NCBI GenBank assembly: GCA_963733035.1
Contig: CAVTBU010000004.1
Coordinates: 352,001 to 416,000 of the forward strand
Origin: Pirellulales bacterium
Lineage (GTDB): Bacteria; Planctomycetota; Planctomycetia; Pirellulales; PALSA-1355
Direction: 5' to 3'
Length of the DNA stretch: 64,000 nt
Under the pieces are notes generated by a model. That model was not told the origin of the DNA. It did no database searches and saw only the letters and a list, made by a program, of their open reading frames with translations. The position numbers and the translations under genes were made by a program. Positions 12,019 to 63,990 of this stretch are shown in pieces; within the stretch, counting starts at the first letter, position 1, and each line of letters begins with the position of its first letter.

Positions 12019-12048
12019 TCATCGCTCAGATTGTAAATTAGGTACGCC

Positions 12049-15413: not shown

Positions 15414-15442
15414 CCCCTCTATTCGCCACACCTTCGGAATAA

Positions 15443-17620: not shown

Positions 17621-17643
17621 ATGCTAAAGCAGTTCCATTCGAT

Positions 17644-32055: not shown

Positions 32056-32069
32056 TCGCTACCCTTTTC

Positions 32070-35507: not shown

Positions 35508-35601
35508 AGCCCGAACCTTTCACCGCCCACGACCGCCGCGCGACTTGGCTCCCTTGGCCAAACGGGGCGGTTGTTGCTCGCAGGAACCTACGCTTCTAGT
35601 G

Positions 35602-39860: not shown

Positions 39861-39869
39861 ACTGGAAAC

Positions 39870-41718: not shown

Positions 41719-41986
41719 CAAAAAACCCGCTTCCTCAGCCCCTGTCTCGTGGCCCATTCGCGTGCCGCAAACCGGCGGTACGTTGGGAGGTTACTTGCCC
41801 AGAGCCAAGATTGCAGTTTAATGTATGATGGGAGATTTAGGAAATCTGCGTTAAACTGCCGCGTCCAGGTGCGAATCGGCCAAGAAGGCACCCAGCAAAT
41901 GCCCGTCCCGCATTGGCCGGCGCATAAGATGACGGGGCCATTGTCCACGCCCCTACGTTTTGCCCGACCACCTCTCCGGTTCCCCC

Positions 41987-42715
41987 ATGTCGCTACTCGT
42001 CGCCAAGAACGTTTCGAAGGAATATGGGACCGGATCGGTCAAGGTTCAGGCACTGCGTCAGGTGGACGCGGCCGTTGAACTCGGCGAATTTCTGGCGGTG
42101 ATGGGGCCTTCGGGCTGCGGCAAGAGCACGCTGCTGCATGTGCTCGGTGGCATCGATCCGCCGACCTCGGGCAAGGTGTTGCTCGACGGCAAGGACTTAG
42201 GGGGCCTGGACGACACGGCTCGCAGCATTCTTCGTCGGCGTCGCCTCGGCTTCGTATTTCAGCGGATCAATTTGCTGCCCACACTTTCGGCAGTGGAAAA
42301 CGTGGCGCTTCCGCTGCGCATCGATGGCATCGGCCGCAATATCGCACATGCTCGAGCGGCGAGTTGTTTGGAACGCGTGGACATCGCCCATCGGTCGGCT
42401 CATTACCCCCATGAAATGTCCGGCGGTGAACAACAGCGAGTGGCCATTGCCCGGGCGTTGGTAATCAATCCCGCGGTGATCATGGCCGACGAACCGACCG
42501 GGGCGCTCGATAGCCACACGGCCCATCGCATCCTGGAGCTCTTGGTCGATTGTGCTCGTCAAGGACAGACGATCGTAATGGTCACGCACGACCCAAACAT
42601 GGCCCGGCAGGCCAGCCGCGTGCTGGTTATGCACGACGGCCGCATCCAGGACGCTGCCGACCTTCCTGGTGCCGATCAAGCAGCGAGTCTGCCCACGTGG
42701 GGCGAAACGCGATGA
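41987..42715 (+). CDS. ABC transporter ATP-binding protein (LolD/MacB-like)
   Basis: Walker A GPSGCGKST, GFVFQ, MSGGEQQRVAIARAL, ADEPTGALD and VTHD. Confidence 0.95.
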   Translation: MSLLVAKNVSKEYGTGSVKVQALRQVDAAVELGEFLAVMGPSGCGKSTLLHVLGGIDPPTSGKVLLDGKDLGGLDDTARSILRRRRLGFVFQRINLLPTLSAVENVALPLRIDGIGRNIAHARAASCLERVDIAHRSAHYPHEMSGGEQQRVAIARALVINPAVIMADEPTGALDSHTAHRILELLVDCARQGQTIVMVTHDPNMARQASRVLVMHDGRIQDAADLPGADQAASLPTWGETR

Positions 42716-45572: not shown

Positions 45573-46928
45573 ATGACCCAGCTATCGAACGGAAAAGTGT
45601 TAGAGACGACCACCACCGGTTCCGAGCGACTGCTAGCACGTGCTCGGCAAAGTATCGCCGGTGGAGACAACAGCACGATGCGTGTCCTGCCGTACCATCT
45701 GCCGCTGGTCGCTACTCGCGGCGAAGGCTCGCGGATCTGGGATGTCGATGGGCAAGAGTACGTCGACCTGAACATGGCCTATGGGCCGCTGATCTTCGGG
45801 CACCGACCGCCGGCAATCGTAGATGCCGTCGTGCGTCAAATCACTGAGAGTGGCTCGCAGCTCGGCTTCCCGGCCGAGGTCTCTGTGCGGGTGGCCGAGA
45901 AGGTCAAGCGGCTATTTCCGCACATCGACTTGCTGAGGTTTTCAAGCACGGGTACCGAGGCCATCGTGGCGGCGCTGCGGTTGGCGCGAACGTTCACGAG
46001 TAAGAAATACGTGATCGCATTTGAGGGCCATTACCACGGCTCGAGCGACAACATCTTCCATCGCTACCATGCACCGCTCGATGAACTACCCTCGGGGCCC
46101 TATGGGCCGGCCTTGCCGGGTACGTTGGGCATGAACGGAGCGCCGCGCGACGTGTTGGTCTGTCGCTGGAACTCCCCCGAGGCGCTGGAGCAGTGTCTCA
46201 ACGACCACGCCGGTCAAGTAGCAGCGGTCATCATGGAACCGGTCATGGGCAACGGTGGCGTTGTTCCGCCAAACCCTGACTTTTTGGACATCGCCCGCGC
46301 GTTGACCAAGGAGCACGAATCCTTGTTGATCTTCGACGAGGTGATTACGGGCATGCGGGTGGCCGCGGGGGGAGCTCAGGAGCGATTCGGCGTTGAGGCC
46401 GACATCACGATTCTCAGCAAGGCCATGGGAGGCGGGTTCCCCATTTCAGCCCTGGGCAGCACGCGTGAGATCATGCAGTGCATTGCGGAGGGCAAGCTGT
46501 TCCACGGCGGCGTTTATTCGGGCAATACCCTGGTGATGGCCGCCGCCGACGCCGTGCTGGACGAAATGCACCGCGACGGCGAGGCAATTTATGCTCATCT
46601 GGAAAGCATTTCGACTGCCTTGGCGACGGGAGTGGACGAGATTTTCAATCGGTTGGGAATCCCGCATCAGGTACAATATGTGGGCCCGATGATCTCGATG
46701 CTGTTGACCCATGAAGACGTCGGCCCGCTGACGAACTACCGCGAAGTGCGCGCGAGTTGCGACTTCGACAAGTTCATCCGCTTCCAGCATCAGTTGCAAC
46801 GATCGGGCGTGTACTTTCACCCGAACCAATTCGAGCCGATGTTCCTCTCCACCGCGCACTCGCATGCCGACATCGCCAGTGTCCTGGATCGGATCGAGGA
46901 CGGTGCTCGCGCCGTGCTGTTGGCCTGA
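45573..46928 (+). CDS. Class III PLP-dependent aminotransferase (GSA-aminomutase-like)
   Basis: YVDL..AYGPLIFGH, STGTEA, FEGHYHG, EPVMGN, LIFDEVITG, SKAMGGGFP (PLP Lys) and GVYSGN motifs. Confidence 0.92.
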   Translation: MTQLSNGKVLETTTTGSERLLARARQSIAGGDNSTMRVLPYHLPLVATRGEGSRIWDVDGQEYVDLNMAYGPLIFGHRPPAIVDAVVRQITESGSQLGFPAEVSVRVAEKVKRLFPHIDLLRFSSTGTEAIVAALRLARTFTSKKYVIAFEGHYHGSSDNIFHRYHAPLDELPSGPYGPALPGTLGMNGAPRDVLVCRWNSPEALEQCLNDHAGQVAAVIMEPVMGNGGVVPPNPDFLDIARALTKEHESLLIFDEVITGMRVAAGGAQERFGVEADITILSKAMGGGFPISALGSTREIMQCIAEGKLFHGGVYSGNTLVMAAADAVLDEMHRDGEAIYAHLESISTALATGVDEIFNRLGIPHQVQYVGPMISMLLTHEDVGPLTNYREVRASCDFDKFIRFQHQLQRSGVYFHPNQFEPMFLSTAHSHADIASVLDRIEDGARAVLLA

Positions 46929-46932
46929 GAGC

Positions 46933-48396
46933 ATGGACCTGTCGCCACAACCGATCCTGGACGCAGCCGAAAGGTATCGGGGCACGTTTGTCGATCTCGA
47001 TGCCGGGCTCGTCGTCGACGCGGCCGATTTCCATGCCGCGCGTTTCCAACTCGCCGAACGCCTCAGTTCGCTCGGGCTATCTCCTGGCGAGCGGGTGGTT
47101 GTCTCGGTCGGAAATGGCCCCCAGTTCGTGGTCACGCTGCTTTCGGTTTTAGCTGTCGGCGGATCGCCACTGCTGGTGCATGCGAAAACACCGGCCGCGG
47201 AGCTGAAACGGACGGCACTGCGGTATGGCGCGCATCTGGTTCTCAGCGATGAATGCCCGCTCGCGGATCTTGAAGCCGCGGGCTTGCCAATTGCTGCCCT
47301 GTCAGCCGGCGAGTGGCTGCGACTTGGCGCGGGTAAAATCGATCCTGGCTTATCGGGCTTCAACGGTGGCTACGTCGAACTGGCCGGAGTGCCACTTCAT
47401 CCCACATCGGGCACGACGGGAGTTCCCAAAGTTGCCGTGCGGCCAGGGCTCGCCGCGACAGAAGAGGCCCGGCATTACATCGAAACAATCGGCATTACCG
47501 CCGACGATACCATCATGGCCATCGCGCCGATGTGCCACGCCTACGCGTATGGGATGTGCGTCATGGTGCCATTACTAAGTGGCGCGTCGATCGTCTCGAT
47601 GCGCGGCTTCCAGGCGAGTAAGGTCTTTCAAGCGGTCGGCGATCATGCGGTCACGATTCTGCCCGCCGTCCCGGCGATGCTTGACGTGCTGCTATTCGGG
47701 GCCGGAGATCGCCTGCGCGGTGCCGCGCGGACCGTGTTATCCGCCGGCTCCCCGCTGTCCGAGCGAACGGCCGAACGTTTTCACGGGAAGTCGGGCCTGA
47801 GGGTCCGGCCGCTCTACGGCACGACGGAAACCGGCGGCATCACGGTCGCTCCCCCGGGCGAGCTGCAGATCGCCGGCAGCTGCGTCGGCCCGCCGATGGA
47901 AGGCGTCGAAGTCCAGGTTCGCCCCCACCCGGCCCATGCCGATTCGCAGCCCGGCGTCGGCAGACTATTTATCCGATCGAGTTCCATGATGGCCGGTTAC
48001 CTGGGGACTGACGGCATCGATGCGTCCATGCTGACCGATGGCTGGTTCGAGACGGGCGATTTGGCGCGGCTCGACGATTCGGGTTTCATTCACCTGTTGG
48101 GGCGCGAAGCCGAGGTCATCAACGTCGAAGGACTGAAAGTCATTCCCTCGGAAGTCGAGGAAGTTATCGCGGCGATTCCGGGAGTCGTCGAAGTCAAGGT
48201 GTATGCCGGAACGCGTAAGAGCGGGGGGCAGTACATCAAGGCGGCGGTCGTCGTCGATAATGGATTGGACGTGCAGGTCATCCGCGCCCACTGCGAACGA
48301 AATCTCGTCTACTACAAACGGCCGGAGCGGATTCTGCCGCTCGACGCCCTACCACGCTCGGCTGCCGGAAAGATCCTTCGCGAGCAGTTGCCGTAG
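46933..48396 (+). CDS. ANL-superfamily AMP-dependent acyl ligase/synthetase
   Basis: TSGTTGVPK, YGTTE, TGDL, GR..EVINVEGLKV.PSEVE and LPRSAAGKI motifs. ATG 46933 lies 4 nt after the previous stop. Confidence 0.9.
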   Translation: MDLSPQPILDAAERYRGTFVDLDAGLVVDAADFHAARFQLAERLSSLGLSPGERVVVSVGNGPQFVVTLLSVLAVGGSPLLVHAKTPAAELKRTALRYGAHLVLSDECPLADLEAAGLPIAALSAGEWLRLGAGKIDPGLSGFNGGYVELAGVPLHPTSGTTGVPKVAVRPGLAATEEARHYIETIGITADDTIMAIAPMCHAYAYGMCVMVPLLSGASIVSMRGFQASKVFQAVGDHAVTILPAVPAMLDVLLFGAGDRLRGAARTVLSAGSPLSERTAERFHGKSGLRVRPLYGTTETGGITVAPPGELQIAGSCVGPPMEGVEVQVRPHPAHADSQPGVGRLFIRSSSMMAGYLGTDGIDASMLTDGWFETGDLARLDDSGFIHLLGREAEVINVEGLKVIPSEVEEVIAAIPGVVEVKVYAGTRKSGGQYIKAAVVVDNGLDVQVIRAHCERNLVYYKRPERILPLDALPRSAAGKILREQLP

Positions 48397-48409
48397 CCCG
48401 GGAGTCGAC

Positions 48410-49258
48410 ATGCAATTGGGCAATTGGCAACTCGACACGATCAACGGCGGCCTGTTTCGATTGGACGGCGGCGTCATGTTTGGCGTCGTGCCGCGAACCA
48501 TCTGGAAAACCGTCGCGCCGCCCGATGAGATCAATCGCATCCAGTGCGCCAACAACTGCGTGTTGGCCCGCGATGGAACGCACACGGTGCTGATTGATAC
48601 CGGTTACGGTGGCAAATTCGCGCCCCTCGACCGGCGGTTCTACGCAATGGAAGAAGGAGCGCCGCTACTGAAGGGTCTGGCCGAACTCGGCGTGGCACCC
48701 GACGAAATTGACACCGTCGTTTTCAGTCACTTGCACTTCGATCATGTCTGCGGTGCCACGGAATTTGATTCGGCTGGTCGGCGTGTGCCAATCTTTCCGC
48801 GGGCCCGCCATATCGTCGGCCGCACCGAGTGGGAAGACGCAACCTCCGGTTCGCCGGAACTCGAAACGGCGTATCCGATGGAAGACATTCTGCCACTCTA
48901 CGAAGCGGGACTAATGCTGGTCGTCGAAGACCGGCAGGAAATCGTGCCGGGCTTGCGCGGTGAGGTCACTGGCGGTCATACGCGCGGCCACATGGCGCTG
49001 TTTTTCGAGTCGGGGGGCCAAACAGCGGCCTATCTCGGAGACATCTGCCCCTCGACCGTCCACCTGCGACGAATGTGGCACCTGGCCTACGACACCTATC
49101 CGCTCGACACGCGTCGCCGCAAACCCGAGTTGTTGGCCCGGGCCGTGGACGAGCAGTGGTGGATCATGTGGAATCACGATCCGCGTGTGAGTGCCAGCCG
49201 GGTCGTGCGCGATCCGAAGCGCGAGTTCGTCCCCATCGAGGCTCACCCGAGGGCCTAG
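48410..49258 (+). CDS. MBL-fold metallo-hydrolase, YtnP-like (lactonase/amidase-type)
   Basis: GGAG RBS and ATG at 48410. FRLDGGVMFGVVP, LIDTG, SHLHFDH, GGHTRGH, GD and the C-terminal HD are present. Confidence 0.9.
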   Translation: MQLGNWQLDTINGGLFRLDGGVMFGVVPRTIWKTVAPPDEINRIQCANNCVLARDGTHTVLIDTGYGGKFAPLDRRFYAMEEGAPLLKGLAELGVAPDEIDTVVFSHLHFDHVCGATEFDSAGRRVPIFPRARHIVGRTEWEDATSGSPELETAYPMEDILPLYEAGLMLVVEDRQEIVPGLRGEVTGGHTRGHMALFFESGGQTAAYLGDICPSTVHLRRMWHLAYDTYPLDTRRRKPELLARAVDEQWWIMWNHDPRVSASRVVRDPKREFVPIEAHPRA

Positions 49259-49348
49259 TTCGGTGGGCGGTAACGGTTGCGGAATCCGCAAAACCTGCCT
49301 GTCCAGAACACCCAATCCAATACCCGCAGTTTACTCATTTACGCCATG

Positions 49349-49377
49349 TTGACGTTGTCAAAACCCACTTGTAGAAT
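49349..49377 (+). promoter_or_regulatory. Sigma70-like promoter for reductase-PKS operon with palindrome over the -35
   Basis: TTGACG-17 nt-TAGAAT, with a TTGAC-GTT-GTCAA inverted repeat at 49349-49361. Confidence 0.6.
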
Positions 49378-49476
49378 CGGGGCTTACGCCGCCTGCCTCC
49401 CGCCTGCAAGCCTTGCTGCTGGAAGGCGGTACGACGTATCAAAATCGAATACTCCGGCAATAGAGAATCTCCGTTT

Positions 49477-50960
49477 ATGTCCTACCTCCTGCTGACAGGT
49501 TCGACAGGTCTCGTTGGCCGCCATTTGCTAAGAGACTTGCTGGCAGCCGACGTTCCGGTGGCCGCCATGGTTCGCCCCGGCAAGGGCGCCGCCACACTCG
49601 AGGGCATCATGGGCCACTGGGAACAGCAGGCAGGGCGGCGCTGCCCCGACCCGTGGTCATCGGGGGCGACCTGTGCCTGGAGGAGGTCGTACCCGACGAG
49701 GCCCAGCGACGCTGGGTGGCGACACACTGCGACCGGATCTTGAGTTGCGCCGCCAGCATGACGTTTCGCGAAGATAAGCGCGGCGAGCCGTTCCGCACGA
49801 ACGTCGAAGGCACGAAGCATCTGCTCGAGTTGTGCCGCACGAGCGGAATCCGACACTTTCACCAGGTGTCAACCGCCTACATCTGCGGCCTGCGGCAGGG
49901 CAAGATTCTCGAAAGCGACATCGACGTAGGCCAGACGCTCGGCAATGTCTACGAGCAGAGCAAGCTAGCGGCCGAAAAGCTTATTCGCTCGGCTGACTTC
50001 CTTGATCAAAGATCGTTCTATCGTCCCGCCAGCGTGGTCGGCGACTCGAAGTCGGGCTATGTCACCAGTTTCCACGGCTTCTACTTGCCACTGCAACTGG
50101 CTCATGCGATGGCGGGCCGCGTGCCGGTGCGCCAGATGGACGAGCGGTTTTTCGCCAAGCTGGGCTTGCAGGGTCACGAAGGCAAGAATCTCGTGCCGGT
50201 CGATTGGTTGTCGGCGGCCATCGTGTATCTCGTGACGCATCCGGAGCACCACGGCCAGACCTACCACTTGGCCAATTCCGAGCCGGTGCCCGTGGTCGAG
50301 ATCCAGCGGGTGATCGCGGAAGCCATCGAGCGCTACTATCCAAAGCCGCTGGCCACGACGATCTCCGAACAGGAGTTGCAAGCCCTGGAGGGGATGTTCT
50401 ACGAATACATGACGATCTACCAGTCGCATTGGCGCGACGATCCAAAGTTCGACCTGACGAACACCCGCAGGGCATTGCCCCACCTGCCGTGTCCGCGAAT
50501 GACGTACGACGTGCTAATGAAGATTTCGCGTTATCCGGTGGAGCGGAATTTCATCGCTCCGCGCCACGAGAAACCTGCAGTGGCCTGCGACGTCGCTGAG
50601 CAGTTGGGTGAATTACTTGGGGCATCGCGCCCGACGAATGCGTCTCAAGTTGGTTTGCAGGTCACCGGTCCGGGCGGGGGCCAGTGGCAATTGCATCTGG
50701 CCGGCGGCCTCGTTTCGGCGGCCGAGCGTGGGCTGCCGACCGCGAGCGCGGCCGGTTTTCATTTGAACTCCGCCACGTTTCGTTCGCTGTTGGCGAGGGA
50801 ACTGTCGGTTGACGAATCGATCAACTCCGGCCGCCTGGTGGTCCAAGGCCCCAGCCAACGGCTCGGAGAATTGAAGAGCGCGCTTGAGCAAGTCGTATCT
50901 TCTCGAACCGGTGACCATCGGACCGTCCAAGCCATAAATGCCCAAGCGATGAAAGCATAG
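49477..50960 (+). CDS. Thioester/acyl reductase (NAD_binding_4 extended SDR) with C-terminal SCP2-like domain; frameshift at ~49638
   Basis: LLTGSTGLVG is in ORF 49477. CAA, NVEGT, VSTAY, YEQSK and RPASVVG are in ORF 49653. The C-terminal GLQVTGPGGGQW...SGRLVVQG is SCP2-like. One missing G restores GRALPRPVVIGGDL (~494 aa). Confidence 0.85.
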
Positions 50961-51012
50961 CTCAGACGCGTCGTCAGGCGGTCGACCACGCCTTGTTGGG
51001 CACGGCCGTCAC

Positions 51013-51037
51013 CCGCCCGGCAGACCTTGCCGGGCGG
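51013..51037 (+). other. Perfect 10-bp GC hairpin between reductase and PKS genes
   Basis: CCGCCCGGCA-GACCT-TGCCGGGCGG, with no adjacent U-tract. Confidence 0.5.
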
Positions 51038-51150
51038 CGCACGCGTTTCAAGACAAACTAGCCCAGGGAGGGAAAGCGTCCGCGGTACTATCGCCGCAAC
51101 CAGGGAGGTGAATTCAAACCGCAATCAGACACACGAAGTGAATCACCAAC

Positions 51151-54100
51151 ATGGCCGATCGCTACTCTCCGCATCAAACTCCGCTGGCCATTGTAGGCAT
51201 GGCTTGCCGCCTACCGGGCGCCGACAATCTCGATCAATATTGGCGGATGCTCGTCGAAGGGCGTCACGCCGTGGTGGAGTTGCCCCCCGATCGCCTTGAT
51301 CAGGACATGTACTTCGATCCTGAAGTCGGCGTTCGCGGCAAGACCTATTCGAAGCTCGGCGCGATCATCAACAGCCGTACGGTCGACTTCAACCGACTAC
51401 CAATCGACCCCAAGCTGGCCGCCAGCGTCGACATCGCCCACCTCCTGATGTGCGACGTCGCCGCTTCGGCCCTGCGACATGCCGGCATCGACCCGTTCAA
51501 CGTGCCGCTGCGCAACACGGGCGTCTACGTCGGCCACGCTCAGGGCAGCACACTCGCCGGCGATCAAACCTATTCGAGTTGCATGCAGGAAGCGGCCGAG
51601 TTCCTGCGCGAAACGCCCGCGTTCCGTCAGCTGCCCCCGGCCGAACAGGAAGCCCTGATTCGCGAACTCGTTGAGCGCGTTCGTGCATCACTACCACATC
51701 CCACGGTGGAAACACCGGACGTTTCGGCCAGCCTGGTAGCTGGCACGATCAACAAGGCCTTCGGCCTGAACGGTCCCTACGTGGCAATCAACTCGGCGTG
51801 TGCCTCGTCGCTACAGGCAATGCTGTTGGGCGCTGCGCGCTGCAACTCGGCCGAGTTGACATGGCAATCGTCGGCGGCGCATCGGACTGCAAGAGCGATT
51901 CGCTCGTGCTGTTTTCGAACGCTCGGGCCATGAGCGCCACCGGCACGCGTCCCTTCGACTCAGAGGCCGACGGCCTGATCTGCGGCGAAGGCTACGTGGC
52001 CGTGGTCATGAAAACGCTCAAGCGGGCGCTCGACGATGGCGACCGGATCTGGGCCGTCGTCCGCGGTTTGGGTGTCTCCTCGGACGGGAAAGGCAAAAGT
52101 CTTTGGGCCCCTCGCAAGGAAGGCCAGACCAAGGCCATGGAGCGGGCGTACCGTGAGGGACTCGACGTTGGCGATTTGGACTATATCGAAGCGCACGCCA
52201 CGGCGACCAAACTTGGCGATGCCACCGAACTGAACACACTGAAAGACATCCTGGGCAAACATTTTCCGCCGGGCAAAAAGATTCCGATCACCAGCGTCAA
52301 GGCAAACATCGGCCATACGCTAGAAACGGCCGGGATTGCCGGCGTGATCAAGGCCGTGCTCGCGATCAACAACGAGACCGTCGCGCCGGCCATCAACATC
52401 AACCAGCTCAATACCAACATCGACTGGGCCAACTCTCCGGTCTACGTGCCGACCACGGCCCAACCGTGGCCCAAACGGGCCGACGGCAAACCGCGCCGCG
52501 CCGGTTGCAATGCATTCGGCATTGGCGGCCTGAACATGCACGTCGTGGTCGAGGAATTCCTCGAATCCAGCCGCGCGCTGGCAGCCGCCGTGCCCGGGCC
52601 ACCCATGCAAAACCTGTCGGCCGACGAGCAGGCGATCGCCGTGATCGGCTTGGGTTGCGTGTTGCCGGGCGCCGAAAACCCCGCGGCATTTTGGAATCTG
52701 CTGGCCGCCGGAACCGACCCCAAGTCGCCCGTGCCGGCCGACCGCTGGCGCCCAGAGGTGGCGATGAAAGGCGCGCCGCACCCGACGCCCGAACCGAATT
52801 CGCTCGTGGGCGGCTTTATCTCGGGATTCGAGTACGACTGGAAGCGTCACAAGGTTCCGCCCAAGCAAGTGCAGCAGGCAGACCCGCTGCAGTTCATGCT
52901 GCTGGAAGCCACGGATCAGGCGATGCAGGACGCCGGCTACGACCAAAAGGCATTCAACCGCGAAAACGTTGGCGTGGTAGTGGGCACGGAATTCGGTGGC
53001 GACTTCTCGTTTCAATTGCAACTTGGGCTACGTCTGCCCGAACTCGAACGGCACATCGAAGCACTGCTCACCAAACGCGGCCTCCCCGTCGAAGACGCCA
53101 GGCAGGCCGGCAAGGACTACGCCACGGCGATGCTCAAGAAGTGGCCCGCACTCATTGACGAAACCGGAAGCTTCAGCACCAGCTCACTCGCCTCGCGGAT
53201 CGGCAAGACCTGGAACCTGATGGGCGGAGCCGCGGCAATCGACGCCGGACAGTCGTCCGGACTCGCCGCACTGTCGACGAGCGTCGACATGTTGCTGGCC
53301 GGCGATTGCGACCTGATGATTTGCGCCGCCGGACAGCGCCGCATGGGTTGGCCCATCTACGAGAGCCTGGCCCTGGGTGGCGATCTGGCACAAGGCCAAC
53401 CTCGATCACCGCTTGACGCCGATGCCCAGGGTTGCGTGCCGGGCGAAGGTGTCGTTGTCGTACTGCTCAAACGACTGGCCGATGCGAAGCGCGACGGCGA
53501 CCACGTCCATGCAATCTTGCGCGGGGTTGGCGGTGCCCACGATCACAATTCCTGGGGCAAGGCGCTGGAACTGGCCATGGAGCGATCGTTCGCTCCAAAT
53601 GCAAAATCGTCCGACGTGGCCGTGATGGAACTCGATGCTTTGGGAGACAAGGATGCGACGGCCGACGAAGTGCGCGCCGTGGCCACCGTCTACGGCAAGG
53701 ACGGCCGTCAGCAGCCGCTGATGCTCAGTTCGGCAATCGGCCAGCTGGGCAATACACAAGGCGCCGTATCGCTTGTGTCGCTATTAAAGGCCGTTCTGGA
53801 AGTCAGCCATGGCGAATTGCCCCCACCGGTTGGCATGCAATCGCCGGCGCCGTTCGTCAACCAGCACGGCAACATTGTTTCCGCGCCGACCGCCAAGACG
53901 GCAATCGACCTGACCACGGCCGATGGTCGTCGATTGGCCGCCGTCGGAACCTGCTCCCGAGGTTTGGCCTACCACGCAATCTTGGAGTATGGCAGTCGCG
54001 TCGAAGTGAAAGCTGGAACTCCAACTCCGCAAGCGGCCGCGGCACCGGCAACAGCGAAAGCCGTTTCGACGGTCGACCTGAGAGAGTTGGAAAAATTCCT

Positions 54101-57100
54101 CATCAACTTCGTCGTCGAACAAACGGGCTACCCGCCGGAAGTCGTTGAGCTCGATGCCGACCTCGAAGCCGACCTGGGGATCGACAGTATCAAGAAGGCG
54201 CAGATGTTCGGCGAGTTGCAAGAGTACTTCGACGTCACGCCAACCGACGACCTGACGCTCGATGATTTTCCCACGCTGCGGCACATCGTCGAATTCCTCG
54301 CCAAAGCTCCGACCAAGGAGGGCGCGCCCGTCGCCACGACGGCCGCGGCGTCTCAAATAGCACCGCCTCCGCAGCCCGCACCTGCGCCGATAGCGCAGCC
54401 AGGGGCTCCGGCGCCCGTTGCGCAGCCGGCGACCTCGGCAACGGCCAAAGATGCATCGGTGAACCTGGCCGAGCTCGAGCAGTTCCTGATCAACTTCGTC
54501 GTCGAACAAACGGGCTATCCGCCGGAAGTGGTCGAACTCGACGCCGACCTGGAAGCCGATCTGGGCATCGACAGTATCAAGAAGGCCCAAATGTTCGGCG
54601 AGCTGCAAGAATACTTCGATGTTACGCCGACCGACGACCTGACGCTGGATGATTTCCCAACGCTCCGGCACATCGTCGAATTCCTCGCCAAAGCGCCCAC
54701 CAAGGAAGGCGCGCCGGTGACGACTGCGGCGTCGGCTACGCCACCTGCCGTGGAACCGGCCCGACCACGGCCTGCGGCGATGCAAGCTCCCGCCCCCAGC
54801 GTGGCGGCAACGGCTGTCGCACCCTCCCCTGCAACGACGGCCCCCGCAGCGCAACCTGCGCCCAGCGCTGCCGCCCCAACTGCCGGCTGGCAAATTTGTC
54901 GCTTCGGCGCGGCCGACCCAGCGACGTTGCGTGCCTTGCTCACGGCGGCTCAGCAGGACGCCTCCGCCTTCCAGGCCTCTTCGCGGCGGAAATTCCTCGC
55001 ACCAGACACGTTCCGCCTGGCCGTCGTTGCCGACAGTGCCGCCACACTCAACACTCGGTTGGCCACGGCCGTCAAACAGATGGACAATCCGGCCGCTCAA
55101 ACCGTCCTCGAACAACAAGGCGTGTTCTATCGACAGGCCAATCCCGACACACGAATTGCCTTCCTGTTCCCTGGCCAGGGGTCTCAGTATACAGGCATGC
55201 TGCGGCAACTCGTTGCCGACGTGCCGGCAGTCGCCAGGCAGCAGGCCGAAATCGACGCCACGATGACCCGGCTCGGATTTCCAACCTGGGCTCAGCTCGC
55301 CTGGGATGAGGCGTCGCCACTGGGCAAGGATGTCTGGACAACGCAAATTTCGATGTTGTTGGGCGATGTGCTCGTGCTTGCGGCACTTCGCGACCGTGGC
55401 ATTCAGCCCGACCTCGTCGCTGGGCATAGCTACGGTGAGTACCCGGCGCTGTTGGCCGCTGGTGCCTGGAATCTCGAACAAGCGATTCGGGTGACGCGAC
55501 GCCGCTGCGAGTCGATCGACGCCCAGCCGGGCGGTCAAACCGGAATGTTGGCCACCACGGCGACGCCAGAGATCGTCGAAAGTCTGACACCGCGCCTGAA
55601 CGGCCCGGCCTACGTCGCCAATCACAATGCCCCCGATCAAACGGTGGTCGGGGGAACGCTCGCCGCATTGGCCGAGCTCGAGCCAATGCTGCAAGCCGGG
55701 TTGTTCGAAACCCGCAAACTCGCAGTTCCCAGCGCATTCCACACACCCCTGATGCGCGAGGCCGCCGACCTGTTTGCCCGGCACATTGCCGCTGAGAAGT
55801 ACGCGATGCCGCGAGTGGCCACGTACAGTGTGGCAAACAACGAAGCGGTGACGGATCCAGTACAGATCGGCAAGAACCTGGTTGCCCATTTGACGACGCC
55901 GGTTCGCTATGCCGATCTAATTCGCAAGTTGGCGAGCCAGGCACCCACGGTGTTCGTCGAAGTGGGTCCGCAGCAAGCGCTGAGCCGTTTGAACCGGCGC
56001 ATTCTGCCCGCGCACGAACTGACCGGCATCGCGGCCGACAATCCGTCGCGCCCCGGCATCGAGCAATTGGTGCGCGTGCAGGCGCTTTTGGAATGCTGCG
56101 GCGCATTGGATCGACCGCGAGCAGAAAACACTCCGACAGCGGCACCACCCGCCTCGTTAGCCAAGGGTCAGATTTGGCACTTTGACGCCACGTCCCGGCG
56201 CCGCGATAAGATGCGAGCTTCGGCCAACAAAGGTGCCAAACCCGCCGCTAGCCGCGCTGCCCCGCCGGCGGCACCGCCGAATCCGGCTCCGTCTCCAGCA
56301 CCGGCGCCGGTGGCTCAAACTCCGGCCCCGATCCCCGCTCCGGCGCCAGCGCCGGCACCTGTCGTGCAGGCCCAGCCGCAAGCGGCACCATCGCCCCCGT
56401 CGCCACCACCAGCGGCACAGCAGACGACGGCGGTCGACACGTTGGAATTGGAGAAGTTCCTGGTTAACTTCGTCGTCGATCAGACCGGTTATCCACCGGA
56501 GGTCGTCGAACTCGACGCCGACCTGGAAGCCGACTTGGGCATCGACAGCATCAAGAAGGCCCAGATGTTTGGTGAGTTGCAGGAGTACTTCGACGTCACG
56601 CCGACCGACGATCTGACGCTCGATGATTTCCCCACGCTACGCCACATCGTGGAATTTCTGGCCAAGGCGCCCACCAAGGAAGGCGCGCCGGTTTCGACCG
56701 CAGCCACCCCTTCTCTGACCGCGCAAGCGCCGCCCGCTCCGCAACACGCTGCCGCGCCGGCAGCCGTGCAGCCCCACCCGACAGCCGCGGCGACCAGCGT
56801 GCCCGCCACCGGCTCCGCACCGTCCGTCGATACCTCGGAACTCGAAAAGTTCCTCGTCAACTTCGTCGTCGAGCAAACCGGCTATCCGCCGGAGGTCGTG
56901 GAACTCGACGCCGACCTGGAAGCCGACTTGGGCATCGACAGCATCAAGAAGGCCCAGATGTTCGGCGAACTACAGGAGTACTTCGACGTCACGCCGACCG
57001 ACGATCTGACGCTCGACGATTTTCCCACGCTGCGGCACATCGTGGAGTTTCTGGCCAAGGCGCCCACCAAGGAAGGCGCGCCGGTTTCAACGGCGGCAAG

Positions 57101-60100
57101 TGCTCCCGCGCCAGCTCCCGCTGTAACAGAGTCGAACGGCGCGGCCGGCGTTTCAGCTTCCGCCTCGGCGCAGATCGACGTACTGCACGTTAGCGGAACG
57201 CCGTATGAGCTCGGCTACCAGCAGGGCGCGGAAAAAAAAACGGAAATTCGAGCCCTCCTGAAGCGCGTCGCTGATCTCACCGACGGCGATTGGAGTGAAT
57301 TGCCGATTCCGGCCGAGGCGCGCAAAAATCCCGAGCGGTTCTTTAGCCCCAACCAATGGGAAGAACTGCGGGGGATGGCCGACGCCGTGGAAGTGCCGCT
57401 GGGCAACCTGGCGGCGCTGAATCTGGCCGTGCTCCCCGACTTCGCCGCCAGCGCCGCGCAGGTGGCGCTGGTCACCCACGTTGGCACGCAAATCCAGGTG
57501 CTGCATGGGCTGGCGGGTGAACTTTCGCTGCCGCCGGCCCTCACGGAAATGCTGACACCCCTGGTGCTCGTTCGCGAGCCGTCGCAGGGGTGGGCCTGTG
57601 CCACGGTCAGCTTCGCCGGCGTAATTGGCAGCCTGGTCGGACTGAACGGAAACGGCCTGGCCGCATCGACAGGCACGCTGATCGACACCGTAGCCACCCA
57701 GAACGGCAGCGCAGCCAGTTCGACCGTGAGGGTCGACGGACTGCTGCAGCGCAACGATACGTTGGAACATGCGGCCGAGGGTTTGCGGCATACGCATGCG
57801 ACCCGTGGCTGGACGGCCTGCCTCAGTCATCAGGGACAAAACCGAGTGGCGGCCGCCGAACACAACGGCTCGTCCTTCACCCAACAGTTTGCCGAGCAGG
57901 CCGTGTTCGCCGCGAACCATAGCGTGCTGCATTCGTCCGGCACGGCTGCTCCGGCCGCGTCGGTCGAACGTTTCAACTGGCTCAAGGCTCAATTGTCTTC
58001 CGCCCAACAGCCGCGCGATGCCGGAGAACTGTTGACCATGCTCGGGCGGATGCCGTCGCGGGGGTCGCTCCGCTTGTTGGCCGTGGTCGATGCGTCGCGC
58101 GGCGACCTGCTTGTTGAATGCGGCTCGGTTCGCGAACGCGTGCACATTGGAGCGTTGCTGCCGACAGCGCCCGCCGGCGATCCCGCGACGTTTCGCTCCA
58201 ACGGAACCGCACCGGCTCCCATAGCCAAACAAGCCCCGGCAGCGCCAGCACCTGCGCCGACCTCGTCAGATCTGAAGCAGCCGGCGGAAGTCGATCCGGA
58301 AAGCATGCGGTTCGTACTTCGCACAGTGCCGAGCCCGTGGCCGCAACAGCCCGCTGACTTCCCCATTTGGAAAGGCGCCGTGGCGATCCAGGGAGAAAAC
58401 CCGCTGGCCGACGCGCTGTGCGAACGAATCACCGCCACCGGAGCGACCGTGGTGCGTCTCAGGGAAACTGGTTCGACCGAGGCCGCCGTGGCAGAACTCG
58501 AGCGGCATTGGCAGCAGCAACCCATCACGCATCTCTTTCTGACCACGCTCCGCGATGAGCAGACACCCGACCGCACAAATGCCGAGGGCTTTGTGCAGGT
58601 CTGCAACCGCCAGGTGATGCTTCCCTACTTTCTCTGCCAGCGGCAAATGCAACTCGCCGGCGATGCCAAACGGCTGAGCGATTGCACCGTCGTGGCGGCA
58701 ATTGATCTGGCGGGCGACCTCGGTTTTTCGGGCAACGTCGCTTCGCCCGAGTCGGGCTTCGTCACGGGGCTGATGAAGTCCCTGTTGCTCGAATACCAAA
58801 TCATGCGCGAGCAGAAGGGCTTTCTGGCCAAAGCCATCGACGCCCCAGGCAGCGAACCCGTCGCGGACCTGGCCGCCAACATTTGTCGCGAACTGGCCCA
58901 TGGCACGAACGACTATGAGGTCGCATTTGTCGGTGGAAATCGGTATCTGCAAGTTGGACTGCCCGTCGCGGCCGAGATGCAATCGACCAGCGACGTCCGG
59001 CCCGGCGGCACGTGGGTACTCACCGGGGGCGCCCGCGGCATCACGGCCGATTGCGGCCTGGAATTGGCAAAACGCTTCGGCCTGAAGCTTCATCTGCTTG
59101 GCACGACTCCGCCGCCGACGCTCGACCCGGCGTGGCGCAATCTCGACGAGCAACAAACCGCCGCCCTGCGCGGCAAGGTGATCATCGAGGCACGCCAGAA
59201 CGGACAGAAGCCCAACGAAGCCTGGGCTCGAGTGGAAAAGGCGATCGAGATCGACCGAAACCTGCGGGCATTCGCCGATGCCGGCATCGACGCGACGTAT
59301 CACGTGTGCGACGTGACGGATCGCGCCGCGCTGGCCCGCGTGCTCGATGACGTCCGCCGCAAGGACGGTCCAATCGAAGGTATCCTGCACGGCGCCGGAA
59401 TCGAGCAATCTTGCCGCTTCGAAAAGAAGACGCCGCAAGCCGTGCAAGCGACGGTTGGAGCCAAGGTGGTTGGCGCCTACTACCTGATGGAGCTCACCCG
59501 CGTAGATCCGGTGAAACATTTCATCGGCTTCGGTTCGATCAGCGGGCGGCTCGGCAGCAACGGCCAGACCGACTATGCGGCCGCCAGCGACATGCTTTGC
59601 AAGTTGATCGGTTGGTACCACACGCAGCGACCCGAATGTCACGCCATCGCCTTCCATTTCCATCCGTGGGATGGCGTGGGCATGGCCGCCAGGCCCGACA
59701 CGGTAGCCATGCTCAAGGCGAGCAACCTGCGACTCATGCCCAAGCGCACCGGGCTGGCCCATCTGCTCCGCGAATTGTATGCCAGGCCAGCGGATACCGA
59801 GCTGATGATCACCGACTGGGAGTATCACCAGCGCTATTACGGCACGACCTTCACCGAGACCGCAAAACGCACCGACCTGCTTGGCGCACCCGGCCAAGCC
59901 GTGCCAACGTTCGGAGCGCCGCGGCAGGATGGCAGCCAACAGCCTGCCACGCCACATATTGCCGACCGCGTGGTGCTCCGCATGGCCGACGCACCTCTGC
60001 CTGGCGCTGGTAGCCAGCCGCTGCCAGCCTCGGCATTTTTGCTCGGACAGAATTCCGATGCCGACGCATTGGCCCAAGCGCTTACGGCTCGCGGTGTGAG

Positions 60101-62432
60101 CGTCGTGCGGCTTCCGGCCGAAGGAGATGCCAACGCGGTATGTGCGGCTCTGGAAAAATCGTATGAGCAGAGTCCAGCCCGCTGTCTTTTCCTTTGCACG
60201 GCCCGCGACGCGGAAGCCGCGAACCTGAACGACCGAGCAAGTATCAGCCAACGGGTTCAACGCGGCGTCTACCTGCCCTATTGGGTCACGCGGCGTTGGT
60301 TCCAACTGGTCAGCAAGAACCCCGAGCCCGCAACCGTCGTCGCGGTCACGTCACTTGGCGGCGACTTTGGTTTTGGTAATCCCGTGCCAAGCCCCGAAGG
60401 AGGCTCGTTCACCGGCCTGCTCAAGTCGATCTTCGTTGAAGACGCCCGCTACGACCACGCCCGCTTCAAAGTAAAAGTGATCGATGCTCCCGCCAATGAG
60501 CCGCCAGCCCAGCTTGCGGACGCCGTTTGCCAGGAGCTTGGCGGCAGTGGACCGGAAGTGGAGGTCGCCTGGTCTGGCGGTAAACGTCAGGTGGTGGCCG
60601 TCTCGCGCGAGCCGGTGGAGAATCTACCGCTAGGCGATCTACCGCGCGGCGGCGTATGGGTGATCACCGGCGGCGCCCGGGGCATCACGGCTGCAACGGC
60701 GCTCGAACTGGGCCGCCGGTATGGCCTGAAATTGCATTTGCTCGGCAAAAGCCCAGCGCCCGAGGCGAACCCGCCGTGGCGAAACTGCACCGACGAGGAG
60801 CTCAAGAAGATCAAGGCCGAAATCGTTCGCAAGGCCACGCTCGAAGGGCGTTCGCCCACGGACGATTGGGACCGCGTTCGCAAGGATCGGGAGATTCAAG
60901 AGTCGCTCGACAAATTTGCAGCGGCCGGCGTCGCGGCGACCTACCACTCGTGCGACGTTGCCGACTGGGACGATATCGACCGCGTGCTCAAGAACATCCG
61001 CGCGGCCGATGGTCCCATCTCCGGAATTGTGCACGGTGCGGGCTACGCCAAGAGTTTTCGGTTCGGCACCGGCGTGGGTAATAAACTCGAGGCGACGATT
61101 GCGCCCAAAATCGACGGCACGCTGGCGCTGATGCACCTGACCGCGGGCGACCCGCTCAAGTATTTCGTCGGCTTTGGTTCACTCAGCGGCCGTTTCGGCG
61201 GCAACGGGCTCAGCGACTACGCGGCCGCCAACGACGCTCTTGCGAAGATCTGCGGCTGGTTTCGGCAGCGACGGCCTGAGTGCCACACGGTTTGCTTCCA
61301 CTGGCAAACCTGGGACGCCGTCGGTATGGCGCTGCTGGCAGACGGTGTCGGGATCACCAAGAATGCGTTCAAGATGGACTTCATTCCGCCGGAAGAAGGC
61401 GTTAACCACCTGATCGACGAACTTCGCGCCGGTGCGCCAGAGAGCGAAGTGCTGATCACCGACGGTTTTTTTCAACGACAGTTTTATCCTTACGATTTCG
61501 AGCGGCCGCTGCCCGGTTCGAGCGGCGCCTCGGCGGCGGCACCGCTTCGAGCACCCGCGGAAAAACCATCCTCGCTCGGTCCGCTACTTTCGGCCTGGCA
61601 GCCAGGCTCCGTCGCGGCGGGCACCGCGCGGATTGACTTCGATCCCGAGTCCGATCCTTTTCTGAAGGAACATCGGCTGAAGCAAAAGCCTTTCCTGCCG
61701 GGAGTGGTCGGCGTTGAAGCCCTCTGTGAAGCGGCGCGTTGTGCGCTGGGTCGCGATGAAATCCGCGAGATTCGCAACGTCCGGATTGTTAATGGCATGT
61801 CGTTTCCGACCGGACCACTGACGGCGCGCGTCGAAGTAACGCCGACAGAAAGCGGGCTCGGCTGCCGGTTGCTCACCGAGCAGCGCGACCGGCAAGGCCG
61901 CTTGATCGATGCCAACCGTCTGCACGTCGAAGGTGTGGTACCCACGGTAAGTAGCGGCCACCCAATCGCAGCCGACCCGCCCGGGCGACCGCCGCTGGGC
62001 TGGTTCCCGCATGCCTATCCGGATGACGGACTGTTGTATCACGGGAATGGGCTCCGCTGCCTGAAAGCCTGCGCCTATCAATACGACGGTGGCTGGGGAC
62101 AAATACTTGCTCCGCCGCTCGCCGAATTGGCCGGACCGCGAGGCGGCGAGGGCTGGATCACGCCGATCGCCGTCATGGACGCCTGCGTGGTGGCCTGCGG
62201 CAGCTTCCTGTTCCTGCAGTTTGGCGGCGTCGTCGAAGTGCCTTACGAGTTCGAACACATGCAGATCGCCAGGCATCCCCGGTCCGGCGAGGAATGCATG
62301 GTCCGACTCTATTTCCGCGAGCGAGACGAACGACACAGCCGCTTCGATTTTACCCTCTTCGGTGACAGCGACGAACCACTAGTGAAAGTCGTTGGCTATC
62401 GCACGATTCGAGTCGGCGCGGGAGGCCGATAA
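51151..62432 (+). CDS. PUFA-synthase-like iterative type I PKS (~3760 aa): KS-KS(C>Q)-ACP-ACP-AT-ACP-ACP-C45-like-KR-KR-DH; frameshift at ~51835
   Basis: KS1 has [27 protein letters not shown] and KANIGH. KS2 has [12 protein letters not shown] and DAGQSSGL. There are four LGIDSI ACPs and an AT with FPGQGSQ, GHSYG and SAFH. Two KRs carry TGGARGIT and DYAAA, and the DH has [11 protein letters not shown]. One missing base restores LLGARALQLG. Confidence 0.92.
54087..54332 (+). repeat. ACP repeat 1 (246 bp)
   Basis: Encodes [16 protein letters not shown]...LGIDSIKK...[10 protein letters not shown]. Confidence 0.95.
54474..54719 (+). repeat. ACP repeat 2 (246 bp)
   Basis: Same 82 aa as repeat 1 except K3Q. 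Confidence 0.95.
56448..56693 (+). repeat. ACP repeat 3 (246 bp)
   Basis: Same 82 aa as repeat 1 except I6V and E11D. Confidence 0.95.
56841..57086 (+). repeat. ACP repeat 4 (246 bp)
   Basis: Same 82 aa as repeat 1 except I6V. Confidence 0.95.
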
Positions 62433-62436
62433 CGCA

Positions 62437-63159
62437 ATGAGCGTCACACGCACGCGCTACGCTCGACTCTCCGAACTACCGCCGGATGCGGCTGCGCGCT
62501 GGCTTTCAGCGGACGAACGCCACGCGTACGGCACGCTACGTTCGCCAGAGCGACGCACCACCTGGCTGGCAGGTCGATTCGCGGCAAAGCGATTGCTTTT
62601 GGAAATGCTTGCCGAAGAGGGCGGCGAGCCCCAACCGGTCGCGGCCGATGAGATTCACATAGAATCGCGATCGTCGCGGTTTGGCCATGGCGAACGGCCC
62701 CTGTTGTATTTCCGCGGTCGTCCAATGTCCTACGCCATTTCGATTGCCCACACGAACCGAGGCGTCGTCGTGGCAGCAAATCTATGCGCCGAGGTTGCGC
62801 TCGGTGTCGACTTGGCACCGACTTCAACGTCGACACGCGGCTCGCTTAATTGGACGTTCACGGCTGCCGAGCGGCGCTGGCTGGCAACGACCCATGCCGA
62901 GCAATTCCAGGCAGAACGTCTCTGGACAATGAAAGAGGCCCTCTACAAAGCATGCCAATGCGGCGAGGGCTTTGCACCTCAGAATATCGAAGTGGTTCCT
63001 GGCCTTCCGCCACGCTATCCGTCATTCGATTCGGCCAACTTGCGACAACTCCAATGTTGGCAAGTCGACGGTCATATCGCGTGTTTGGCCATTGTCAAGA
63101 ATGTTCACAAAGCCTTGCCGACGAATCCGGCGAACGACATGCTTCGCTCGGCCGCGTGA
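62437..63159 (+). CDS. Sfp-type 4'-phosphopantetheinyl transferase
   Basis: WLAGRFAAK, ISIAHT, LGVDL and LWTMKEALYKA motifs. ATG lies 4 nt after the PKS stop. Confidence 0.88.
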   Translation: MSVTRTRYARLSELPPDAAARWLSADERHAYGTLRSPERRTTWLAGRFAAKRLLLEMLAEEGGEPQPVAADEIHIESRSSRFGHGERPLLYFRGRPMSYAISIAHTNRGVVVAANLCAEVALGVDLAPTSTSTRGSLNWTFTAAERRWLATTHAEQFQAERLWTMKEALYKACQCGEGFAPQNIEVVPGLPPRYPSFDSANLRQLQCWQVDGHIACLAIVKNVHKALPTNPANDMLRSAA

Positions 63160-63225
63160 CCATACACAGAATTCGTGCTCCTTTACCATACAATTCACCT
63201 GCAAATTGCCTGAGAGAATAAAGCG

Positions 63226-63990
63226 ATGATTGATCTCACCGGAAAAACGGCCCTCGTTACCGGCGGTTCCCGAGGCATTGGCCGTGCCTGTGCCACGCGA
63301 TTGGCGGAAGCGGGCGCGGACGTTGTGCTCAACTACGTCACGAGTTCGGCGGCCGCCGACGAAGTGGCCGAAGTTGTCCAGGCGATGGGCCGCAATGTGG
63401 CGGTCGTCAAGGCCGACGTGAGCGAACGGGACGACTGCGAGTCGATGATGCAGTTCATCGGCGAGACGTTTGGCAAGCTCGACATCCTGGTGAGCAACGC
63501 TGCCACGGGCGGGTTTCGGCCGATGCTGGCCATCACGCAGAAGAACTTCGAATCGACGATGAAGACCAACGTGATGGCCCTGATCCACCTGGTGCAGGCC
63601 GGCTACAAGTTGTTCCAGAAAGCCGACGGCCGTGCCAAGGTCGTAGCCATCTCCAGCCACGGATCGCACATGGCTCTGCCAATGTACGGAGCGGTGGGTG
63701 GTTCCAAAGCCGCTCTGGAAAGCTTCGTGCGGCACTTCGCCCTCGAACTCGGCGGTCAGGGCATCAATCTAAACATCGTGAAAGCCGGGCTCGTCGATAC
63801 CGACTCCACCCGGAGAATCCCGTACGCCGAACAGTTGTTTGCCGCCCGCGGAATGCGCAGCATGACCGGCGATCGGTACCTGCTGGCCGAAGATGTCGCC
63901 AACTGCGTGCTGTTTCTGTCGAGCCCGCTCAGCGATATGGTGCAAGGCGAGACACTGACGGTCGACGGCGGAGCAGCCGTGCACGCTTAG
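63226..63990 (+). CDS. FabL-like enoyl-ACP reductase (SDR)
   Basis: TGGSRGIG, then SNAATGGFRP (cf. NNAASGVLRP of Bacillus FabL) and a Y-x6-K motif, YGAVGGSK, instead of the classical YxxxK. Confidence 0.8.
   Translation: MIDLTGKTALVTGGSRGIGRACATRLAEAGADVVLNYVTSSAAADEVAEVVQAMGRNVAVVKADVSERDDCESMMQFIGETFGKLDILVSNAATGGFRPMLAITQKNFESTMKTNVMALIHLVQAGYKLFQKADGRAKVVAISSHGSHMALPMYGAVGGSKAALESFVRHFALELGGQGINLNIVKAGLVDTDSTRRIPYAEQLFAARGMRSMTGDRYLLAEDVANCVLFLSSPLSDMVQGETLTVDGGAAVHA

Follow-up and report, generated by a model that had tools for sequence, protein, structure and literature searches.

What is made by the seven co-oriented genes around a giant polyketide synthase (PKS) in a planctomycete genome, and do these genes belong together? 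The genes lie on the plus strand at positions 45573-63990 of a 64,000-nucleotide stretch from a Pirellulales bacterium (assembly GCA_963733035.1; G000:C4:352001-416000 in our numbering), hereafter called the window. The initial annotation had listed a class III aminotransferase, an AMP ligase, a metallo-beta-lactamase-fold (MBL) hydrolase, a thioester reductase (TR), the PKS, a phosphopantetheinyl transferase (PPTase) and a FabL-like enoyl reductase, and searches against Pfam and NCBIfam found all seven as described. It had also guessed that the cluster continues past the right edge. The next 18 kb were analysed as well (given here in L002 coordinates), and a condensation-family gene was found directly beyond the FabL-like gene. 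Together with ATP-binding cassette (ABC) exporter genes upstream, this makes the cluster larger than first read. On balance, we regard the locus, about 27 kb in length, as an orphan biosynthetic gene cluster that runs from window position 41960 to about 3.5 kb beyond the right edge; the right boundary would lie 8.4 kb past the window edge if a resistance-nodulation-division (RND) pump is counted in. Between window position 1 and a point 20 kb beyond the right edge, neither a nonribosomal peptide synthetase (NRPS) nor another PKS was found. The cluster represents a real, widely conserved and uncharacterised family. Judging by its domains, motifs and conserved neighbours, we lean towards a pathway in which a long fatty chain would be built, released as an aldehyde and converted to an amine, which is probably joined to a second acyl group.

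The first of the seven genes (45573-46928, +) encodes a stand-alone class III aminotransferase of the GSA/HemL family (451 aa; PF00202, E 5e-66). Its best NCBIfam models were the HemL subfamily NF000818 (388 bits, cut-off 398) and GntE (343 bits, cut-off 525), and against the HemL equivalog TIGR00713 it scored 375 bits, under the cut-off of 527. PDB matches were 4zm3, entered as 'Aminotransferase' (2e-94), HemL (1e-88) and the aminotransferase (AMT) domain of MycA (6kfm, 4e-54). The genuine hemL of this genome is located elsewhere, 16 kb downstream (L002 ~18040-19350, +, corresponding to G000:C4 ~432040-433350), scores 536 bits with NF000818 and shares 37.5% identity with the cluster enzyme over the aligned region. 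The cluster aminotransferase falls short of the equivalog score, is not the sole copy in the genome and is distinct from this genuine hemL product. GntE is an aldehyde transaminase, and the match to it is counted as support for an aldehyde substrate.

The next gene (46933-48396, +) encodes an acyl-AMP/CoA ligase of the ANL superfamily with AMP-binding and AMP-binding_C domains. Its start is probably the ATG at 46933, 5 bases past the aminotransferase stop, and not 46864. The top NCBIfam match was the long-chain-fatty-acid-CoA ligase PRK06187 (231 bits, cut-off 476). The TR (49477-50960, +) is also stand-alone (NAD_binding_4, E 1e-24), with the motifs GSTGLVG and YEQSK and a borderline SCP2-like match at its C-terminus (20.9 bits, cut-off 21.3); its gene has a 1-nt deletion near 49637.

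The PKS is a single fused polypeptide (51151-62432, +). Piecewise searches with Pfam and NCBIfam gave the domain order KS(Cys)-KS(Gln)/CLF-ACP-ACP-AT-ACP-ACP-C45-KR-KR-DH (ketosynthase, KS; chain-length factor, CLF; acyl carrier protein, ACP; acyltransferase, AT; ketoreductase, KR; dehydratase, DH), in agreement with the fused KS+KS*/AT/KR/DH protein of the initial annotation. KS1 (51151-52622; Pfam and motif) has the active site SACASS and carries a 1-nt deletion near 51834. KS2 (52623-54062), recognised by both the N and C halves of ketoacyl-synt, is of the CLF/KSQ type, with Gln replacing the active Cys in AIDAGQSSG. PDB entry 6riw ('ORF10'), which we take to be the PfaC KS-CLF didomain, aligns over both KS halves (8e-74). 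A KS of the Gln type performs decarboxylative self-priming, so the ligase may be free for another role. Two ACPs follow (ACP1 and ACP2, 54063-54881), then an AT with the motifs GHSYGE and SAFH (54882-56165; PF00698, E 1.5e-34), presumably of the malonyl-specific type, and two further ACPs (ACP3 and ACP4, 56427-57164). These four PP-binding domains are encoded by four 277-nt direct repeats with 82-90% DNA identity.

Behind the C45 domain (57165-58298, discussed below) there are two KR domains, each with an N-terminal structural half: KR1 (58299-59960; YAAAS; PF08659, E 3.5e-28) and KR2 (59961-61577; YAAAN; PF08659, E 4.5e-29). The protein ends with a single PKS-type DH (61578-62432; PKS_DH_N, 8e-9), in which the PS-DH and FabA matches were weak (FabA 19.7 bits). 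The PfaA model TIGR02813 gave 344 bits in the KS region and 259 bits in the KR-DH region against a cut-off of 1010. Neither tandem dehydratases of the FabA type nor an enoyl reductase of the PfaD type was found in the cluster, which has the one PKS-type DH and a short-chain dehydrogenase/reductase (SDR) as the enoyl reductase candidate. The position of the AT varies among relatives: it stands between the ACP pairs (ACP2-AT-ACP2) in the clade of the window and before all ACPs in G014, G004, G562 and G503. These placements amount to a domain rearrangement inside one PKS family.

The PKS gene is followed by that of an Sfp-type PPTase (62392-63159, +; PF01648, E 3e-13), which came after the PKS in all clusters examined. 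The last gene in the window (63226-63990, +) encodes the SDR, a probable trans-acting enoyl reductase. FabL (NF005975) was its top match by a wide margin (256.4 bits) yet under the equivalog cut-off of 328, and 'FabL-like SDR' therefore seems the safe name. Between ligase and TR lies the gene for the MBL-fold hydrolase (48437-49258, +; PF00753, E 3e-19), which has an HLHFDH motif and resembles the lactonase YtnP (185 bits, cut-off 425; PDB 3esh, 3e-45).

Convergent with the FabL-like gene, just past the edge, is the gene for a 514-aa condensation/PapA5/WS-DGAT-like enzyme (P0001; L002:1988-3532, -). It scored 38.8 bits with Pfam Condensation, above the cut-off of 30.6, and its HHxxxDG catalytic motif is intact as HHACCDG. 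The nearest curated families were WS/DGAT (54.2 bits, cut-off 310) and PapA5 (35.2 bits, cut-off 396), and its Atlas neighbours were planctomycete Condensation/WS-DGAT/PapA5 clusters; a PDB sequence search of this enzyme gave no match at E <= 0.01. The RND pump (L002:3706-7140, -) and a membrane-fusion protein (MFP; L002:7152-8384, -) come after it. At the other end of the cluster, two exporter genes precede the aminotransferase. The ABC ATPase (41960-42715, +; PF00005, E 6e-33) is LolD/DevA/MacB-like (LolD 235 bits, DevA family 189 bits, both under cut-off). The permease is a duplicated FtsX/MacB-type protein (FtsX x2 + MacB_PCD) in a listed open reading frame (ORF) at 42550-45219 (+), the true start probably being near 42740; with LolC/E it gave 86 bits, under the cut-off.

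With the C45 domain as query, 41 related genomes were searched, and six had close orthologues (59-73% identity) within giant open frames, all in uncultured Pirellulales or Planctomycetaceae metagenome-assembled genomes. Five of these six neighbourhoods were inspected. The full order in G003 was FtsX, aminotransferase, ligase, MBL, TR, PKS, PPTase, FabL-like gene, convergent condensation gene, RND and MFP; G016, G009 and G023 matched it as far as the DNA examined or the contig extended, and G001 from mid-PKS onward. In G009, tryptophan-biosynthesis-like genes are inserted between MBL and TR (by eye from translations). The permease gene was immediately upstream of the aminotransferase in G003, G016, G009, G023 and G014. 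RND and MFP were syntenic only in the window's own family (G003, G001, G009) and were not seen by the rearranged clusters described next; on this synteny their membership in the cluster is doubtful.

A wider scan with one genome per species covered 80 loci with 10-kb flanks. A homologous PKS (> 400 bits) was present in 19 of them, accompanied within these flanks by a FabL-like gene in 13, a TR in 7 and an aminotransferase in 2. The order was MBL-PKS-PPT-...-FabL-TR-aminotransferase in the named strain Bremerella sp. JC770 (L053) and PKS-PPT-FabL-TR-aminotransferase-ligase in L098. G004 has MBL-PKS-PPT-FabL-TR-aminotransferase-ligase-condensation-ABC-FtsX on one strand. G562 follows G004 up to the condensation gene, no ABC/FtsX being seen beside it, and has a Rieske-type oxygenase (CSHRY...CQYHGW, by eye from the translation) inserted between PPTase and FabL-like gene. 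G539 and G503 have the same genes in a divergent layout, and the ABC/FtsX pair was also found within the rearranged clusters of G004 and G539. G014 carries the same gene set, but its PKS has no C45 and 5.9 kb are inserted between MBL and TR; this insert contains crotonase-like, acyl-CoA-dehydrogenase/oxygenase-like, methyltransferase-like and SDR ORFs (by eye from translations). The inserts of G009, G562 and G014 are lineage-specific. An MBL gene was found in the clusters of G003, G016, G009, G023, G014, G004, G562, G539, G503 and Bremerella. By these comparisons, at least five different arrangements of the gene set occur among the families of Pirellulales.

The prevalence of the individual genes was surveyed in 301 Pirellulales genomes, including the source genome, and co-location was cross-tabulated by hand from coordinates. 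The aminotransferase orthologue (E <= 1e-120) was present in 41 genomes, representing 24 of 161 genera, the ligase (E <= 1e-100) in 44, KS-CLF (E <= 1e-120) in 76 and TR (E <= 1e-60) in 108. In a phylum-wide sample, 3 of 401 genomes contained the aminotransferase orthologue. Among the 41 carriers, 35 had the ligase on the aminotransferase strand at a distance of no more than 500 bp, in each case on the downstream side; in 31 a TR lay within 20 kb on the same contig, often adjacent, which amounts to genetic coupling of TR and class III transaminase; and a KS-CLF match was present in 33, within 20 kb in 27. In several of the exceptions the gene sits where a contig stops or, in a fragmented assembly, on a short one. 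The initial annotation would have fallen if aminotransferase, ligase and MBL were not syntenic with homologous PKSs; linkage was seen in most carriers, and the set recurs together, in shuffled orders, in other Pirellulales. By this distribution, the aminotransferase-ligase pair is an accessory module, carried by only some members of a broader PKS-FabL-TR(-condensation) family.

One part of the initial annotation did not stand, namely the C45 acyltransferase-like domain as the amide-forming enzyme. The domain is IAT-like and of the Ntn type (NF040521, 87.2 bits, cut-off 85). A profile of nine C45 domains matched Penicillium isopenicillin-N acyltransferase (IAT; 2x1c/2x1d, E 1e-8). The two deposited sequences differ at the residue after Asp-Gly, Ala in one and Cys in the other; this residue is presumably the Ntn nucleophile Cys103, and the nucleophile column was fixed by the alignment to IAT. 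It holds Ala in the window, G002, G003 and G009, Thr in G001, Ser in G016, a non-Cys residue in Bremerella, G562, G503 and L036, and Cys in G023, G015, G004, L044 and L039. C45 was absent from the whole G014 genome (E <= 0.001), in which only ~460 nt separate the last ACP from KR1. C45 as amide-forming enzyme was therefore rejected for the window genome on the loss of the nucleophile and the absence in G014: the domain is unlikely to form an amide here and is a degenerate remnant, which the lineage of the window is losing or can do without. Better candidates are the ligase and the condensation-family enzyme encoded past the edge. In free-standing C45 enzymes the Cys nucleophile drives autoproteolysis. 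By analogy, C45 in the Cys-retaining homologues (L044, L039, G004, G023) may split the megasynthase into two chains, with the break falling after the ACPs and before the KRs.

Based on this gene content, the favoured pathway would run as follows. The iterative PKS (KS-CLF, four ACPs, AT, two KRs and one DH), activated by its own PPTase and assisted in trans by the FabL-like reductase, would make a long, largely reduced, possibly hydroxylated acyl chain; the second KR may leave hydroxyls, as proposed for Zmn10/Zmn13 (PMC5811116, in part). The stand-alone TR with its lipid-binding SCP2-like tail would release the chain as an aldehyde, which the GSA-family aminotransferase would convert to a primary amine. 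The pairing of aminotransferase and ligase, together with the conserved HHxxxDG acyltransferase, suggests that the amine is then N-acylated with a ligase-activated acid. The amide bond would be formed by the PapA5/WS-DGAT-like condensation enzyme or by the ligase itself, the amide analogue of wax-ester synthesis by a reductase and WS/DGAT. The lipid may be exported by the Lol/DevCA-like ABC system, perhaps with the RND pump. An alternative that uses every gene would have the MBL protein as thioesterase; the ligase would then turn the acid back into acyl-CoA, the substrate of both the reductase and the acyltransferase. We also entertain, as a speculation that is probably wrong in at least some part, a new class of envelope lipid: a PKS-derived long-chain alkylamine, N-acylated to an 'amide wax', made jointly by the reductase, the transaminase, the ligase and the PapA5/WS-DGAT-like enzyme and carried by the ABC system to the outer membrane, with aminotransferase-free sister clusters making the ester version and a Cys-keeping C45 perhaps autocleaving the megasynthase.

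Several observations weigh against the amine pathway. Of the 76 genomes with KS-CLF, 43 have no aminotransferase orthologue, and TR and condensation enzyme also occur without this orthologue in L036, L044 and L045, so the core pathway does not need an amine. By type, the aminotransferase could equally well aminate beta-keto thioesters, as in the MycA AMT domain. Because the family scores for HemL/GntE, FabL, WS-DGAT (54 bits), PapA5 (35 bits) and TR (67 bits) are all below curated cut-offs, the assignments leave the substrates undefined. The MBL hydrolase is without an assigned pathway step, although it may act as thioesterase or in editing, and both TR and PKS are frameshifted in this assembly. 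One rival reading is a product free of nitrogen, in which a core of reductase and acyltransferase makes a fatty aldehyde or alcohol and from it a wax-ester-like or diol-ester lipid, the aminotransferase-ligase pair being an add-on with a different or minor role. TR and KS-CLF homologues (in 108 and 76 of the 301 genomes) turn up far more often than the aminotransferase (in 41); L036, L044 and L045 have TR, PKS, FabL and condensation enzyme, and in their genomes and that of L039 only HemL-like matches of 36-40% were found, on other contigs; and the nearest families of the condensation enzyme, WS/DGAT and PapA5, are O-acyltransferases. However, where the aminotransferase is present it is almost always in the cluster, by the TR or the ligase, a pattern that makes little sense unless it acts on what the TR releases, and we consider a nitrogen-free product improbable. 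Another rival is a zeamine-II-like polyamine or amino-alcohol. Here the aminotransferase would work on ACP-bound beta-keto intermediates over and over while the chain grows, and on the final aldehyde too, and a hydroxyl would be left by the second KR, to give a polyamino lipid. The GSA family does include PKS-embedded AMT domains (MycA AMT 6kfm, 4e-54; the 'GSA' class of PMC3870968, in part), and two KRs, a stand-alone TR and a stand-alone condensation enzyme mirror Zmn10/13/14/19 (PMC5811116, in part). Yet the cluster aminotransferase is free-standing, outside the synthase polypeptide, and is linked most tightly to the ligase (35/41) and the TR (31/41), not to the PKS. Its match to MycA is weaker than those to GntE and HemL, whose substrates are aldehydes, and there is no second NRPS/PKS assembly line within ~20 kb. 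The polyamine seems to us a shade less probable even than the nitrogen-free lipid. Attack of the amine on a retained keto or enone group would give a cyclic imine of the coelimycin type, and TR followed by transaminase is described as the universal entry to actinobacterial polyketide alkaloids (PMC5365063, in part). An iterative synthase with tandem ACPs, CLF and a trans enoyl reductase is, however, typical of long reduced chains, and the SCP2-like lipid-binding tail, lipid-type acyltransferase and Lol-like export point to a lipid, so that a cyclised alkaloid would be a considerable surprise.

It also had to be considered that the cluster is dead in this genome, both frameshifts being real inactivating mutations. 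TR and KS1 are each split over two frames by a 1-nt deletion (near 49637 and near 51834) relative to four relatives, in which the PKS frames are uninterrupted (3670-3814 aa). In a soil-metagenome run (X1), contigs ~94% identical to the window have an extra C at 49637 and 51834 and both frames intact; near-identical contigs from three other runs (X2, X4, X5) fall short of both sites, so that only X1 spans them. The identity of ~94% over most of 49400-52100 indicates relatives of the source organism in soil samples; of sampled words of this stretch, only small shares were present in any run. The two deletions are thus in the assembly and absent from the relatives and the metagenome contig. Against inactivation, the remaining PKS frame of 3585 codons has no stop, and other genes are broken too. 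The treS-maltokinase fusion gene (treS-mak; 12037-15410, +) is frameshifted, with alpha-amylase profile positions 1-227 in the ORF at 12037-12906 and positions 327-446, Malt_amylase_C and the maltokinase domains in that at 12534-15410. The housekeeping hemL has its N-terminal ~60 residues in another frame. This makes four broken genes in ~84 kb. Because treS and hemL are affected as well, and because the assembly consists of only 10 contigs yet is 92% complete, the TR and PKS frameshifts likely reflect indel errors of long-read assembly, which would fit better than pseudogenisation. We rate a dead cluster no higher than the polyamine.

The surroundings of the cluster include a BBP7 family putative beta-barrel porin (2902-4506, +; E 6e-106) and a glycogen/trehalose block (10069-23208), which holds treS-mak, a gene for a GDE-type debranching enzyme and several genes of the alpha-amylase family with CBM48. 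On the minus strand at 28606-36891, two RND transporters of the AcrB type (1151 and 1149 aa), encoded in tandem, and a membrane-fusion protein make up another efflux system, which lies 6 kb upstream of the ABC genes of the cluster. Between this block and the ABC exporter are two large ORFs (699 and 548 aa; 37761-41464, -) with no Pfam or NCBIfam match.

The analysis defines one planctomycete PKS cluster family by its gene set, boundaries, variable parts and distribution. Since Bremerella sp. JC770 and several single-contig genomes carry rearranged versions, the predicted amine or amide lipid is open to direct testing. If the prediction is true, a nitrogen-bearing polyketide lipid would be added to the envelope or secreted chemistry of planctomycetes, and the cluster would offer a natural enzyme set for converting acyl thioesters to fatty amines and amides.

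No description of the cluster, and no characterised cluster of the same architecture, was found in the open-access literature searched. A 2025 review of planctomycete secondary metabolism did not mention the terms searched for the cluster, and a 2026 survey of hybrid PUFA-type (polyunsaturated fatty acid) lipids leaves planctomycetes unmentioned. Type I PKS clusters are numerous in planctomycete genomes and, in genome papers, only counted with antiSMASH (PMC13190842, in part). The catalogue of secondary lipid synthases by Shulse & Allen lists planctomycetes with types I and J only, and the words 'aminotransferase' and 'thioester reductase' are absent from that paper (PMC3098273).

The cluster resembles the PUFA (PfaA-D) and heterocyst glycolipid synthases in its KS-CLF pair, tandem ACPs, PfaA-like KR-DH region and reductive release enzyme. 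The hgl/dev systems also have an FtsX-type ABC exporter (DevBCA), as does the cluster. It differs from them in scoring far under the PfaA cut-off, in having no FabA-type tandem DH and no PfaD, and in the presence of an aminotransferase; no glycosyltransferase was seen. The pairing of an NAD_binding_4 reductase with an HHxxxDG acyltransferase is shared with the wax-ester route (fatty acyl reductase + WS/DGAT) and with PapA5. WS/DGAT acts in wax-ester synthesis and PapA5 in phthiocerol dimycocerosate assembly, whereas the acceptor here would be an amine and not an alcohol; the two family scores are far under the cut-offs, and the condensation enzyme is planctomycete-specific by its Atlas neighbours.

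TamA/TamH turn a fatty acid into a fatty amine via A-ACP (adenylation domain-ACP), TR and transaminase (TA) (PMC9594044, in part). The cluster likewise has an ANL adenylating enzyme, a TR and a class III transaminase, with the three genes clustered and aminotransferase and ligase adjacent. TamH, however, is a TA-TR fusion and TamA has its own ACP, whereas three separate proteins are encoded here, and the acyl chain would come from a dedicated giant PKS instead of being a C12 fatty acid. With the actinobacterial polyketide alkaloids, e.g. coelimycin, the predicted pathway shares reductive release followed by transamination of the aldehyde (PMC5365063, in part); those routes have a modular PKS, an in-line TR and cyclised products, the cluster an iterative PKS, a trans TR and lipid-type accessory genes.

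Among the systems compared, zeamine appears closest in overall logic. The comparison with zeamine and fabclavine was made by published description. Zeamine synthesis relies on a stand-alone TR (Zmn14), whose aldehyde is transaminated, on an additional KR (Zmn13), and on a free-standing condensation enzyme (Zmn19), which acylates the primary amine (PMC5811116, in part). Both systems thus combine an iterative PUFA-synthase-like KS/CLF/ACP/KR/DH system with a stand-alone TR and transamination to a primary amine, and the cluster also has the second KR and the stand-alone condensation enzyme, TR and condensation gene being conserved with the PKS. The functional parallel drawn initially therefore holds and is closer than claimed, extending to the stand-alone TR, the second KR and the stand-alone N-acylating condensation enzyme. 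The differences lie in how the parts are built: the synthase is one fused polypeptide here and consists of PfaA/C/D-like subunits in zeamine, the enoyl reductase is FabL-like instead of PfaD-like, and the aminotransferase is free-standing, whereas in zeamine it is an AMT domain in the PfaD homologue. An ANL ligase takes the place of the NRPS/PKS partner line, none being nearby, and C45 and MBL are extra. In its predicted functions, it would join a known logic of reductive release and transamination to an unusual fused PUFA-like synthase.

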